Of a stretch of DNA of 64,000 bases, positions 24,001-30,000 are shown piece by piece. The stretch's first letter is position 1. Each line of letters begins with the position of its first letter. This DNA is from a plasmid, in the NCBI RefSeq assembly GCF_054482525.1, contig NZ_JBTHVG010000003.1; one strand, written 5' to 3'. The position numbers are program-made.

Positions 24001-27000
24001 GGCCGTCCATTCTGGGAAGTTGAGCCAGGCCCGCATGATTATGAATATGGCCCGCAATATCCGTATTTCCCAGACCAGCGCTAGGAAGAGATCAAGATGA
24101 GAGAGCCAAGACCACGCCATACCTTGCAGGTCATTCGTGTACCTTCTCTGGAGGTTCAGGACCTGGGGCTGACCAGCTTTGATAGCTGGCTTGACGAGCA
24201 CGGGTATGACAAAACGAATGCCAGAAATAACCGTACCATCTGGGCGAGAGAAGGCGGATGGCATCTGAAACGTTGCAGAAATCTTGAAACTGGCACGGAC
24301 GATTTCTGGTTTATCGCTTTCGATGGTAAAGGCGGGAAGATTTACCCGCTGAAAACCCAAAGAGACTACCGGGCTGCATATCGTAAGCTGGAAGCAGAAG
24401 GTTATGCGCCTGCGGTCATCGAGCAAATGACCACAGGCGCAGCATATAACCTGGCCTATCCACGTTCCACCCTAAAACAAGCTGAGACGGCCACCAGCGA
24501 GCCAATTCGGAAACCTGACGTAGATATCCAGGGTGAGCACTGCGAGCGCGTAGTGACGCAACGTAGTGGCGTGGCACAGGGTAAATTCAAAGCTCTGCTC
24601 ATCGAGAATTTCGCAGGCCGTTGTGCGGTAACCGGTTGGGTTAATGGAGGTGTCCTGGATGCGGCACACATTGAACATGGAACCCGGTACAATCCGTCTA
24701 ATGGCATCCTGATGACTCCAACAATGCATGCGCTGTTTGATGCCGATCTTATGGGCATAGATCCGGCCACCCTGACCGTTCATTTTAAGCCAGGCATTGA
24801 GGTGGGCGAGCTGTTTGAAGGCCGTAAAATCACACCGCTGGTGTACGATCTGGACTTAGAGCGGCTGGCCGTACGCTGGGCAGAATACCAGGGCCTTGCT
24901 CAGGACCAATGAAGGGTGACAGCCAGGTTGTGCCTAAACCTGGCAGTAAAACCTGCATGCCACAAACCTTTAAATTCTGACTCAAGAGCCTGGCACAAGA
25001 TAAAAGCGAAATGAAAAGGTTAAAACCGGTGCACCAGACCTCTTAGGTTTAATACCTGAGCCAGTATACTGGCAGTCTCAGGTAAGTGGGTATCATACAC
25101 TTCAGAAATATCCACACCGAGATAACCGCAACAGTTAAAGAGCTAAAAAGGACGGTTTTAATTTTATGAATAAAACAGCTTTAATTATGATTCTGGGAAT
25201 CCTCGGATGTGGTAAAGCATTTGCAGCCACTGAATTACAGCTCCAGCAAAAACGCGTTATGCATTTCTGTGCCAATGCCAGCCTTCCGTTGTTGATTGCC
25301 GGTACAACTTATGCGAATACGTCTGACAATGGACGACCAGAAAAAGAAAGAGTGGCAATCCTGAAAAATTCAGTTGCAAGCTCGACAGCTTATAAAATGG
25401 CATCTCCCGGAGTTCAGATGGCCATGATGAGCGTGGTGGAAGATATTGCCGATCCGAAAGAATTAGCTCTACATCAAAAAGAAGTTAGACGTCTTGGGGC
25501 TAGTTATCTTTCCGACAGCGGTGTTTCATGGGCTTCAAAAACTGTTTCACCATTTACAGCCTGGTGTAACTTTAACCGTTTAGAAAGTTAAGGCTGGCAA
25601 GGCGGTTCCTGTTCAGGAAAGTTACTTTCCGTGCGGGGACCGTAAGATACAGATAAAGCTTAAGGCCTTTGAATTTTTGGAAAGCATTTGAAAATTTCAT
25701 TGCGCTTGTCTGATATGAAACAGCCCTGCATTTCTGCAAAGGCTGAAAGAGTGTGTACGGACTTTGGAAGGAGTGATGATATACGCCTGAGCCATCCCAT
25801 CACCGCAGACAGGGTAATTAACCCTGACTAAAGCTTTCACCTATTCCGTCGCTCGCAAGCGGCTTTCGCACACTAACGAAGGTATGGCCTTTCGTCGGTG
25901 TTAAATTTTTCGGCTATTTGCAATCTGAGGTTGGATTGTAGATTTTAGTTAGAAATGGATCAAAGTCCGTTTTGTGCAAAACTTGGTTGACAACCCTCTT
26001 TTGGATGATGTGCCGTTTCGTGCAAAAGTTGGTTGGAGGCCAAGATGGCAGAGTTCGTAGGTTCGGCTGCTTCGCAAGCTGATTTCATTTGGAAGAACGC
26101 GGAAGACCTGTGGGGGGGGGATTTCAAGCATACCGACTTCGGCAAGATCATTTTGCCGTTTACCCTGCTGCGTCGATTGGAGTGCGCACTGGAGTCTACA
26201 CGGGAAGCATCGCTCGATAGCCAACCAGCCACGATTGAGTTCTTAGAAGCAGAGTTCAGTGTTGATTTCGATGCGCTGCTATCTTGACCGCCAATCAGAC
26301 CCGCATGGTTCAGGTTTGTGTATGAGAGTCCCCAAATGGCTGTAGTTCTAACCAAAGCCTTGATTGAAGCCGGCCGCACCGGAAATAGTGGGTACAGAAA
26401 AAAGCAGTTGCTTGCGCTGGGCGTAAGTAACCCGCCGAAAAGCGGCTGGATCGAACGACTGATCGGCACTGAGGTATCTGACGAGCAGTACGAACGCTTT
26501 CTGGGGCACAGCACGAGCAAGCTGCATATTCCGGTCGAAAATGAACACCTATTCCGGTTTAAAATGAACGCTGATTCCGGCTTGCGTGTACACCGATTCC
26601 GGACACCTCAGTGCACGTACTCTGATGTCAGATGAACCGTCCTGTTCCAACGTCTTGGATCCACAACTGCCGCGCTGCGCTTGGCTGCTGGCTTGTTCAG
26701 TGAGTCGAAAAGATGCCTCCCCTCAAAGCTCAGCTTCTGCTCGAAGAATCCCTGTCCGCATACTTTCCGGAATCACTGTTCAACTTCACCGGAATACGCA
26801 CAAGCAGGCTGAACAGATCCTACGCGGAGAGCAGCCAGCCAAGGGGCTTCAGTATGCAAAGCGAGCGAAGAAGCTCGCTTCTGAAAGAAAAGCCACAATT
26901 GATCTGGATAACGAGCACCTGTCTGAAATCGAAAAGTATCGGTAGCCCTAGACTTTTAGCCGCTGAAGATCTCTTAGATACCATTGGTGAAACTTGCTGA

Positions 27001-30000
27001 AGTCAGCCTTCTGTTTCTCTACCGTGCTTTTATAGATCGCATCACTGGTAACCGCACAAGCAGTCCAGCCAGCCTCATAGACGAAGCGAGTAGCTATCGG
27101 TGACTTCTTCGGGGTGCTATCCCAGCGGTTTTTGAGCCACCGCGCAAGCCCTTCATCAAGAGGGACAACCAGATTTAGCTGCTGTTTTGTGCGAGTGATA
27201 CCGACATAAAACAGCCGACGTTCCTCCTCGATTACCTCTTCGGTCGGAGGGGTGTTCATCGATGTGCGAACGCTGTAAACATCATCGGGTTTGCCGCCAG
27301 GAAATTCCTGCTCATTCAGCCCGACCAGTATTACGTTATCCCACTCCAGCCCCTTGGAACCATGCAGTGTGGAAAGGATGAAGGGATCGCAGTCAGTTGC
27401 AGCCTCGCCTGGATTCAAGATAAGGTTTAAAAACGTGCGGGAATCGATCTTACTGGAGACAAGTAGCTCCTCGATCCTCTTGACCCCTCGTTGCTGGTCG
27501 TTCGATCCAGTGCGAGTTACACCCTCAGAGCCAACACTATCAATGAAACCCTCCATACGCAGGCGTAGTAACACATCGATAGCAGGCGTTTCCTCTCCGT
27601 CTTTCTGGCAGATAGTGGCGAGCCTGCCCAGCCGATCTTTTTGGTTTTGTGCGCCCTCGAATAACTGGCCTAGAGCAGACCATAGGTCGGCGTGCGGAGC
27701 CATCAATCCACTGAGCGCCGCTTTGAATTGCCCTTTCTGCCAGCTAAAACCAGCCTCCTTCAGAAAGCCGTAAACAATCGCTTGTTTGTTGGGATGGTTT
27801 TCCAGTAGCCGCAGATCGCCGTACACAGACAGCAAGACGCCAACTACCAGTATCCCGATTTCAGTGCGGGTGTGTAATGCGCTTGAACCATTGAGGTAGC
27901 GATAAGGTAGCCCACACAGGCGTAAAGTAATTTCCGCCTCAGCAAGGTTCGCCTTAGTGCGGGACAATATGGCTTGTGTTCCACTGCTCACCGAGAGGTT
28001 TGATAGCACCTTGGATAGGCAGTTATCAAAGTGCAATCTGACCTCTGTTTTGGGGGTGCTAGGATGACTGACACAAAGCTTGGTCAGCTTTGTAGAGTTG
28101 CGCCGAATTACCGAGTTAGCCATCAAGGAAAGCTCATGGCCAAATCTGAACGTGCATGACAGTTGAAACACCTTCGTATTCGGGTAGTGCTTTTCAAACA
28201 GTCCGCCGATAAAGTCTGGTCGAGCACCACGCCACTCATAAATACACTGGTTAACATCACCAACAGCCATAACTGACGTATCCGACTTAGATAGCAAGCG
28301 GGTCATGTCATGCTGTATCAGGTTAACGTCCTGATATTCATCAACAATGATGTGCTTGAAGTGGGCACCAAGGCTGCTGTCATTACGCAACAGTGCGACA
28401 GCCTCAACCAAACAGTCATCAAAGGTTCGCAGACTGTTTTCCTCCAGCAGCTCACAATAGCGGCCATAGGCGCGAATAAACTCCCGTTTGATGTTGCTGA
28501 ACGTTGGATCATTGGCAGCATCAACAGGAGTTACGGCCGCCGCCCGGCAGCGAGCAATAAACAGCTCGAAGTTTTCAATTTCATTGGGGTCAATAAAATT
28601 CGCCTCATGGTCAAAGCCATAGCAGTAGGCTTGCTTTACCAGTTGCTCATAGCGGTAGTCGCTTGGAGTAATGAGGTCTTTCTTCTTGATTATCTGTTGG
28701 CGTTCTCCGTAACCAACAATCTTTAAGGCCAAGCTGTGGAACGTGCGGATTTCTGGAATCACGCTCGACATCAGTGCCGTCTTCAACTTCTCCGTGAAGC
28801 TCACCTGCGCCGACTTGTTGTACATCAGGATCAGAATGGAGCGAGGATCAGTTCCCGTCTTGACCAGCCGCTCAACGCGCTTTACAAGTATGGTTGTTTT
28901 CCCGCTACCAGGTACGGCTTTTACCAACGCATGTCCGGTGTCATGGCTGACAATACTTTTCTGCTCCCAAGTCAGTCTTTTTGTCATGCCTTAACCTTGT
29001 AATTGGCGCACTGACGGGCCTCGGTGTAGGGAACGATCTTTGCTTTACTGTGACATTGCAGATAGCCATCCTCCCATCGGCCTGCTTGCTCGCACATAAT
29101 GCAGTTGGGAAATAGTGAATGAGGATCGGCGTGACGGATAAAAGCTCGTAAGTTATCTGCCAGCTCAGCGGCCCCTAACGATCTAGGCCATGTGTTCACG
29201 TCAGAATTGATTGTTAAATCCACTTCAGCGAGCGGCATCGTTTGTTCGTTGAGTCGGCCGGAACCACTTAAACTCCAGACAGACATATCCACGTTACCTA
29301 CTGAGCAGACGCCGCTACAGGTGTCCACAGATTGAAACGGGGGAAGCCAGTTGAATACTCTCAGGATCTTCTCCTTGATCGAGTAGGCCCCGGTAAGCAA
29401 CATCTGAATATCAGAGGCAGATTGGACCTTAAACTCAAGAATCGGGATACCGGCTTCGATCTTGTCTTGAGAGCAGGGGTGTGTGACACAAATCTCTACG
29501 TAGCAACGCCTTTCGCCAGTCGTATCATACAACATCACGTCTGGTCGCAGCCCTGTGACCTTATCGTGTTTTTCCAGCTCTGCCTGATCGAAAAATTGAG
29601 TCAAGTTGTAGCGTGCAGGCACGGATTTTACGCACTGACGTGCTTCGTCTCTAACTAAGGCTAAATGAGGACCATTACAGGCAACCCGGCGCTCCAGCTC
29701 AAGGCTAATAGGCATTTCACGGCTGAGAGCTTGTTGGTAGCGATAGAAGAATGCTTCTTTGCCGCACTTGTGAAGATAGGTTTCAAGGGCACAGCATTCT
29801 TCCGAATGGCGAAAGTGCTTAGCGTTGAACTCGCCCATTACCGGGGTCAGGGGGCTCTTACAACCTGGGCAGGTGTAAGTATGTGAGCGCAGGGCAGCGC
29901 CAATGTGCGTGAGGGTGCCCTCGTCGTCTAGCGCGTAAGCGTATTGTATTGAGCTGGATTGAGTTGTCATGACTGCGTAGCCTCCCAAAAAAATCCAGCT

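Follow-up and report, generated by a model that had tools for sequence, protein, structure and literature searches.

What is the function of two translationally coupled genes, for a putative nuclease and a helicase, in the backbone of an IncHI2 plasmid? The question is raised by a plasmid stretch of 64,000 nucleotides (contig NZ_JBTHVG010000003.1 of the RefSeq assembly GCF_054482525.1; the window, hereafter, is this whole stretch). Here, a gene for a CoiA-like nuclease of 328 amino acids (aa) (28984..29970, minus strand; RefSeq WP_001572342.1, "competence protein CoiA family protein") is followed by a gene for a 679-aa helicase of the UvrD family, superfamily 1A (SF1A) (26948..28987, minus strand; RefSeq WP_032192809.1, "ATP-dependent helicase"). 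The original prediction, made from the sequence alone, described the pair as a candidate undescribed defense module, and our data support this description: the pair is conserved, has no named counterpart in PADLOC-DB v2, and is linked to defense by association. We infer that it is probably a new defense system of the nuclease–helicase class, providing immunity against invading DNA, that is, phages and/or rival plasmids. This reading is based on the association of the pair with BREX, prokaryotic Argonaute (pAgo), toxin–antitoxin (TA) and SoFic-like genes, and on its presence among the cargo of a Tn7-like transposon.

The Gene Pair Is Conserved as a Unit

The two open reading frames (ORFs) overlap by four nucleotides, ATGA (28984..28987, minus strand), with the TGA stop codon of the nuclease gene at 28984-28986 and the ATG start codon of the helicase gene at 28987-28985. 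The nuclease gene starts with ATG at 29970, and the Shine–Dalgarno sequence GGGAGG (29981..29986, minus strand), read directly in the sequence, lies 10 nt before this codon. Hence the arrangement originally described, namely, two minus-strand genes for 328 and 679 aa with a 4-nt overlap and a GGGAGG ribosome-binding site preceding ATG 29970, is confirmed by the ORFs and the sequence. All peptides quoted in that description are found in the translations, both those of the nuclease (YTCPGCKSPL...AKHFRH and GLRPDVMLYD...YVEICVTH) and those of the helicase (GSGKTT, IVDEYQD, GDVNQCIYEWRGA, and HGSKGLEWDNVILVG). Mechanical ORF calling extends the nuclease ORF to TTG at 29988 instead of ATG 29970. 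Judging from the alignment, the 328-aa start at ATG 29970 is the correct one, as orthologs align from residue 1, and the 284-aa call is wrong, since that form would lose the invariant zinc ligands C34 and C37. The start annotated in RefSeq differs by record (NZ_CP022165.1 vs. NZ_CP042898.1: 328 aa, WP_001572342.1, vs. 284 aa, WP_074149649.1).

Homologous pairs are conserved neighbors elsewhere, which answers the co-occurrence check proposed together with the prediction. The nuclease has 62 homolog clusters at ≥50% identity. A scan of one genome per species yielded 11 full-length nuclease relatives, with the helicase gene directly downstream in 11 out of 11; these loci come from six genera (Pseudomonas, Aeromonas, Motilimonas, Marinobacter, Zhongshania, and Aestuariibacter) and show 48–83% (nuclease) and 53–88% (helicase) identity to the window proteins. 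A profile search of 1.84 billion representatives retrieved 3,265 nuclease-related clusters (327 with E ≤ 1e-30), and the genomic context was looked up for 12 representative clusters. Six of these distant clusters are paired with a UvrD helicase (P0066, P0074, P0081, P0082, P0088, P0114), the helicases having 668–718 aa (629 aa at a contig end) and the identities to the window being 27–40% for the nuclease and 30–49% for the helicase; five have no adjacent helicase (P0083, P0084, P0095, P0100, P0170), and one is found on contigs too short to judge pairing. The junction is conserved as well: wherever it was read in other organisms (15 out of 15 paired loci), the stop and start codons overlap, by 1, 4, or 16 nt, and all 17 paired locus groups retrieved retain such an overlap, at identities as low as ~27% (nuclease) and ~30% (helicase). 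The reciprocal search with the helicase yielded a similar number of clusters and the same taxa as the nuclease search, and for 20 helicase clusters the longest contig is equal in size to that of a nuclease cluster (e.g., 3,467,491; 77,258), which suggests about 20 further co-occurrences on the same contigs.

Both genes are under purifying selection, dN/dS (the ratio of nonsynonymous to synonymous substitution rates) against the four nearest non-plasmid orthologs being 0.16–0.18 for the nuclease and 0.11–0.16 for the helicase. In the flanks of the paired loci, no third gene is common to loci of different genera. Taken together, the pair is a self-contained, horizontally mobile nuclease–helicase cassette with variable flanks, which co-evolves as a unit across deep divergence and carries signals of coupled expression. 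In a crude neighbor-joining tree of 112 nuclease relatives, the paired forms fall into two separate groups, and hence the helicase may have joined the nuclease long ago or on several occasions; at this resolution, one helicase gain cannot be told from two.

Two damaged copies were encountered: the only chromosomal copy in Escherichia coli (NZ_CM148383.1, hit H21) is split by the insertion sequence IS100, and the nuclease gene of Pseudomonas asuensis (locus L008, 8001-8983) has a frameshift. No relatives of the nuclease were found in 50,697 phage genomes (tblastn) or in the IMG/VR scan, and hence it is not a phage gene.

The 328-aa Protein: A CoiA-Like Nuclease

The sole domain of the 328-aa protein recognized by sequence is Pfam CoiA_N (PF25164; residues 27–59, 4.7e-5), corresponding to an N-terminal C2H2 zinc finger (29806..29871, minus strand) and found in 46 out of 48 nuclease family members. 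Residue conservation was assessed in 112 relatives, with identities down to ~22–28%, and the four zinc ligands, C34, C37, H52, and H55, are conserved there at 93–100%. The finger is followed by a predicted PD-(D/E)xK nuclease core (residues ~60–180; 29431..29793, minus strand) and a cysteine-rich C-terminal domain (residues 197–328; 28987..29382, minus strand). Invariant or nearly so in the same set are C60, E63, H67, and K71 in the first helix of the core, C98, C113, E133, D144, E159, H164, K170, and E179 further in the core, and C222, C290, C293, C306, and C321 in the C-terminal domain, so that 13 Cys/His ligands are conserved family-wide beside E63, D144, E159, and K170. Residue D144 is located one residue ahead of a predicted strand (145–148), E159 lies inside another one (155–161), and the β3 motif is E-I-C, not the canonical ExK. 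The fold is assigned as restriction-endonuclease-like, of the PD-(D/E)xK type, and the conserved positions suggest that the nuclease holds a complete acidic/lysine catalytic set and up to three metal sites.

The Pfam CoiA nuclease domain (PF06054) was detected in none of the 48 family members, nor is it present in the Pfam output for the query, where domains were listed to E = 10. Since this domain is missing and CoiA is reported as restricted to Bacillota, the 328-aa protein is, by its domain content, CoiA-like, not CoiA. Thus, of the CoiA-like nuclease in the original prediction, the zinc finger, the PD-(D/E)xK core, and the general architecture stand, and the likeness does not extend to the CoiA nuclease domain of Pfam.

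Other resources add little. The cysteine-rich C-terminal domain had no match in PDB, with no solved relative of its fold, and a sequence search of PDB (query A1) yielded only chance matches to TIM (E 0.2). No NCBIfam family and no PHROGs entry matched the nuclease, and PADLOC produced only a marginal match to DruB (residues 13–85 against positions 4–79 of the 504-position model, 3.9e-4).

The 679-aa Protein: A UvrD-Family Helicase

The predicted SF1 helicase with UvrD/PcrA motifs is borne out by the Pfam domains of the 679-aa protein, UvrD-helicase (3.7e-44), AAA_19, and UvrD_C (4.9e-18). The Walker A motif is GSGKT (K30), motif II is DEYQD (D216/E217), and motifs III–VI are intact; GSGKT, DEYQD, GDxNQCIYEWRGA, TFRFG, HxxKGxEWD, and VGxTR are invariant across 12 orthologs (53–88% identity), which also retain a C-terminal extension of ~70 aa. 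By these domains and motifs, the protein is an intact SF1A UvrD-type helicase with complete motor motifs.

Its place within the UvrD family was assessed from structural and profile matches. The best PDB match, UvrD from Deinococcus radiodurans, aligns over residues 8–606 (4e-34), whereas the solved GajB aligns over 85 residues only (1e-11). The top matches in PADLOC, namely, the GajB models (1.4e-51) and the reverse transcriptase (RT)-associated helicase (6.3e-51), involve only the N-terminal half of the protein, the GajB hidden Markov model (HMM) spanning residues 14–294, and the NCBIfam models of PcrA, Rep, and UvrD match the helicase as well as GajB does (3e-50 to 6e-44). A phage helicase family, phrog_1967 of PHROGs, also matches (9.6e-87). 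Set against the equivalog cut-offs of NCBIfam, the scores are 171 vs. 911 bits for PcrA, 169 vs. 951 for Rep, 150–160 vs. 965–1144 for UvrD, 148 vs. 543 for helicase IV, 23 vs. 419 for HelD, 96 vs. 708 for AddA, and 50 vs. 696 for RecB. As all of them are far under the cut-offs, the protein is, by profile scores, not a housekeeping UvrD, Rep, PcrA, HelD, or helicase IV. Given the UvrD-wide alignment, the partial GajB matches, and the sub-cut-off housekeeping scores, we therefore assign it, at the level of sequence, to a distinct clade of the UvrD family, whose identity with GajB is not demonstrable.

Genomic Context Outside IncHI2 Plasmids

In other organisms the pair is repeatedly found next to defense genes. 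It directly follows the BREX genes for PglZ and BrxL in one locus (L021), lies 2.2 kb from a pAgo gene, with a 405-aa gene in between, in another one (L010), and is surrounded by MazEF and ParE/Phd modules and a YobI-type ATPase in two more (L019/L020). Further, it adjoins a SoFic-like Fic gene (L004) or Fic/RhuM genes (L030), lies near a type II nicking-endonuclease-like gene (L012), and is carried as cargo by a Tn7-like TnsA/TniB/TniQ transposon (L026). This pattern is that of a mobile defense gene, as an association and not as a proof.

Solo relatives of the nuclease have similar neighbors. They were found downstream, on the same strand, of a type III-like Mod and ResIII/SNF2 pair (L018, 1-7053) and of a Wadjet cluster encoding MksE, DUF3584, and DUF7281 (L024, 550-7020), and in an island with an MmeI-like restriction–modification (R-M) enzyme (L027/28). 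As the helicase-less relatives in L018 and L024 follow other DNA motors, the nuclease may serve as a modular effector for more than one motor.

Proposed Mechanism and Alternative Explanations

If the pair is a defense system, its action can be envisaged as follows. Operons of a PD-(D/E)xK nuclease and an SF1 or superfamily 2 (SF2) helicase constitute a validated class of defense systems, whose proteins invariably form complexes (bioRxiv 10.1101/2025.07.10.664194); because complexes are reported to be universal for such nuclease–NTPase operons, we propose that the two proteins form a complex here, too. The UvrD-type motor would load on 3′ single-stranded tails, nicks, gaps, or ends, which should be plentiful in replicating or injected foreign DNA, translocate in the 3′–5′ direction, and unwind the duplex. 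The nuclease would then cleave the resulting single-strand/double-strand junctions or branched structures, by analogy with the junction-specific nicking by CoiA, and the invader would be degraded, or possibly the infection would be abortive. The cassette contains no methyltransferase, and thus self would likely be discriminated from non-self by the structure or ends of DNA rather than by modification, as has been proposed for Hachiman and Gabija.

A broader version of this reading, which we put forward only tentatively and hold to be somewhat doubtful, makes the 328-aa protein the first representative of a large family of immune effector nucleases so far missing from the catalogs (the 3,265 clusters), combining the C2H2 finger, the PD-(D/E)xK core, and the cysteine-rich domain that had no match, with up to three metal sites. 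Such effectors would plug into different DNA motors: at least two clades would use a dedicated UvrD-type helicase, and other members type III-like Res/SNF2 enzymes and perhaps Wadjet, and the helicase-coupled form of IncHI2 plasmids would restrict phages and/or competing plasmids.

Several considerations weigh against a role in defense. The context evidence comes from only about 17 locus groups. The nuclease is recognized by no defense HMM of PADLOC-DB v2 save the marginal N-terminal match to DruB, and the location of the pair in the conserved IncHI2 backbone would equally fit a function that benefits the plasmid. In two loci the surroundings are conjugative-like or plasmid-like, the pair adjoining the type IV secretion system gene for TraC (L005) or residing on a ParB/RepB/resolvase element (L031). 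The phage-inhibition phenotype of IncHI2 plasmids has reportedly been assigned to the neighboring ter cluster and hence lends the pair no support. Finally, the defense function, the formation of a complex, its substrate, and its trigger are all what we infer.

The same plasmid-like settings speak for an alternative in which the helicase and a structure-specific nuclease process the DNA of the mobile element itself, for instance, by resolving recombination or D-loop intermediates, by repairing or establishing conjugated single-stranded DNA, or by resolving multimers; such a module would parallel the CoiA/RadA and YraN/ComM helicase–nuclease pairs of natural transformation. The backbone location, the proximity to TraC, the ParB/RepB/resolvase element, and the Tn7-like transposon all agree with it, as does the fact that the only sequence domain recognized in the nuclease is the N-terminal zinc finger of CoiA, a D-loop resolvase acting with a helicase (bioRxiv 10.1101/2024.02.06.579203). 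Nevertheless, we consider this alternative unlikely: the flanks are unconserved, with no consistent tie to transfer, replication, or partition genes; several chromosomal copies lie beside BREX, pAgo, and TA modules; the solo relatives adjoin R-M and Wadjet systems; the distribution is sporadic, as for accessory immunity genes; and the Pfam CoiA nuclease domain is missing throughout the 48 family members.

A Gabija-type variant, with the helicase as a GajB homolog that senses DNA ends and hydrolyzes nucleotides, and with the CoiA-like protein replacing GajA as the effector of abortive infection, in the way put forward for Liu-DS1 (GajB and GajC), seems still less plausible. It would account for the GajB models being the best PADLOC matches of the helicase, and defense by a GajB homolog whose partner is not GajA has been demonstrated (bioRxiv 10.64898/2025.12.08.692795); however, the GajB match is limited to the N-terminal half and is no stronger than those of PcrA, Rep, and UvrD, the solved GajB aligns over a far shorter segment than UvrD of D. 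radiodurans, the partner has neither OLD/Toprim nor MazF-like features, and the Walker A lysine is at K30, as opposed to approximately residue 252 in Liu-DS1. It is hardly credible that the pair is hitch-hiking or decaying cargo that at present serves no function on the plasmid. The chromosomal E. coli copy split by IS100, the frameshifted Pseudomonas nuclease gene, and the hsdM pseudogene in the surrounding region are what decay would look like, but about 786 plasmid records carry both ORFs in intact form, the dN/dS values are 0.11–0.18, the catalytic and motor motifs are invariant, and the coupling junction is conserved, so that the selection and conservation data largely refute this explanation. 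Defense against invading DNA remains the reading that we prefer.

The IncHI2 Setting and Neighboring Genes

The window represents the IncHI2 plasmid backbone, and the plasmids with the pair are typed IncHI2A/MOBH/MPF_F. Numerous large conjugative plasmids from Salmonella, E. coli, Enterobacter, Klebsiella, and Citrobacter carry the 3-kb pair with 100% identity. Matches were obtained in 825 PLSDB records (786 with ≥80% coverage), and the pair is present in approximately 800 plasmids at ≥95% identity and in 116 out of 5,426 complete E. coli genomes, where 121 out of 122 matched places are on plasmids.

According to the RefSeq annotation, the pair sits between the ter operon/hipBA side and the gene of an H-NS homolog, with an hsdM N-terminal pseudogene on the ter/hipBA side. 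One HNH gene is found on either side of the pair (24097-24912 and 30601-30939, both on the plus strand); in an alignment with 32% identity (E 1e-12), the 112-aa HNH protein corresponds to a C-terminal portion of its 271-aa counterpart, and the HNH model of PADLOC is matched by the longer protein only (2.2e-8). The neighborhood as originally described (an hsdM remnant, HNH paralogs, hipBA, and an H-NS paralog) therefore agrees with the annotation, and the HNH endonucleases, the hsdM remnant, and hipBA count toward the defense context of the pair. A candidate promoter, TTGACA-16-AAAAAT (30300..30327, minus strand; 10/12 consensus positions), weak and found by a consensus scan only, is located ~330 nt upstream of the nuclease gene, inside the 630-bp region common with the divergent HNH gene.

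Two other regions of the window deserve mention. Region 33913-40180 encodes a Tn3-family transposase (995 aa, 1127 bits), a serine recombinase, and two enzymes of formaldehyde detoxification, S-formylglutathione hydrolase and class III alcohol dehydrogenase; it looks like a transposon insertion and is missing from an otherwise collinear IncHI2 record (L001). An orphan Dcm-type DNA cytosine methylase gene (45761-47230, minus strand; 846 bits) adjoins a thermonuclease/EcnA-like gene (47364-47918, plus strand), and no cognate restriction enzyme of the methylase was seen nearby.

Significance

IncHI2 plasmids rank among the main carriers of multidrug and colistin resistance in Salmonella, E. coli, and Enterobacter. 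If the pair is a working defense system, it would be a plasmid-carried immunity trait traveling with resistance genes, and, in hosts carrying the plasmid, it could tip the balance as to the phages (therapeutic phages included) or rival plasmids that succeed. If the nuclease is, moreover, a modular effector, it might influence the ecology of the spread of mcr-1 and multidrug-resistance plasmids and the outcome of phage therapy. If the pair defends, a widespread nuclease family, now mislabeled "competence protein CoiA family," would also join the defense catalog, and a new pairing of an SF1 helicase with a PD-(D/E)xK nuclease would become available for mechanistic comparison with Gabija and Hachiman. 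Were the pair to process plasmid DNA instead, it would be the plasmid counterpart of the recently described helicase/nuclease pairs of D-loop resolution.

Comparison With Known Systems

The pair matches no named system in PADLOC-DB v2 (the 2023 release), and it may bear a name in a newer catalog; we found no paper on a module of a CoiA-like protein and UvrD in the literature, with thin coverage of subscription journals.

Gabija resembles the pair in having a UvrD-family helicase encoded beside a nuclease, in line with the GajB HMMs being the top PADLOC matches. The original prediction had set Gabija aside, and rightly so: the partner has no GajA/OLD match in PADLOC or NCBIfam, its fold is PD-(D/E)xK, and there is no conserved third gene. 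In addition, the helicase is as near to the housekeeping UvrD, PcrA, and Rep as to GajB. In Liu-DS1, a GajB homolog is combined with a MazF-like GajC (bioRxiv 10.64898/2025.12.08.692795); the partner considered here is PD-(D/E)xK, unlike the Toprim protein of Gabija or the MazF-like one of Liu-DS1, and the MazF-like partner and the Walker A motif at K252 led us to reject Liu-DS1 as the same system.

The combination of a UvrD-family SF1 motor with a PD-(D/E)xK nuclease is shared with AddAB, RecBCD, and AdnAB, which process DNA from ends, and the cysteine-rich nuclease recalls AddB and Cas4, whose nucleases carry a cysteine-ligated metal cluster. Here, however, the nuclease is a separate small protein with another domain order, and neither Chi recognition nor a second motor subunit is present. 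AddAB and RecBCD were rejected on the AddA and RecB scores given above and because the 328-aa protein is unrelated to AddB and RecC.

CoiA, reportedly restricted to Bacillota, nicks DNA specifically at junctions and acts together with a helicase (bioRxiv 10.1101/2024.02.06.579203). The C2H2 finger, the atypical PD-(D/E)xK core, and a C-terminal extension are common to CoiA and the 328-aa protein, D144 and E159 corresponding to the catalytic D in β2 and E in β3, and this likeness suggests junction- or branch-specific nicking as the possible chemistry of the latter. Unlike CoiA, which is chromosomal and belongs to the competence regulon, the nuclease described here occurs in Gammaproteobacteria and their plasmids, and PF06054 is undetected in it and in 47 relatives; the helicase partner of CoiA, RadA, is unrelated to UvrD and not encoded adjacently.

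CoiA-type N-termini are also seen in defense proteins. The closest validated precedent is PD-lambda-4, a two-gene anti-phage system of a P-loop NTPase and a protein with a CoiA-type N-terminus, the B protein resembling CoiA/zinc ribbon over residues 1–66 (Vassallo et al. 2022, PMC9519451 supplement). Its NTPase is of the AAA_35/STAND-like type and thus differs from a UvrD helicase, and the similarity is confined to the zinc-finger region, so that PD-lambda-4 was rejected as the same system; its PADLOC models gave no match to the nuclease at E ≤ 0.01. Weak matches to the first 50–80 positions of DruB were seen in five out of 11 family members scanned (nuclease residues 10–85, E from 2e-4 to 4e-3), and the N-terminus of DruB is probably formed by the same CoiA-type zinc finger. 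Druantia itself was rejected, as the DruB match is limited to N-terminal residues, and DruA, DruC, DruD, and DruE are absent from the locus.

In organization, the pair resembles Hachiman and the class of nuclease–NTPase systems (bioRxiv 10.1101/2025.07.10.664194). Hachiman itself was rejected: neither protein matches the Ham models of PADLOC, HamB belongs to SF2, whereas the helicase here is an SF1A UvrD-type one, and the nuclease is not DUF1837. No match to the nuclease was found among the PADLOC models of Hachiman, AbpAB, Hna, Nhi, Olokun, PD-T4-1/4/8, and Upx either, and a CoiA-type zinc finger together with a cysteine-rich C-terminal domain is undescribed for these systems. Still, the pair shares with this class the two-gene operon in which a small PD-(D/E)xK nuclease accompanies a larger helicase with Walker A/B motifs, the lack of a methyltransferase, the occurrence, as far as about 17 locus groups show, beside defense genes and on mobile genetic elements, and the gene overlap that suggests a complex; and the feature that characterizes the class, an operon of a nuclease and an NTPase or helicase conserved as a unit, is observed here as well.

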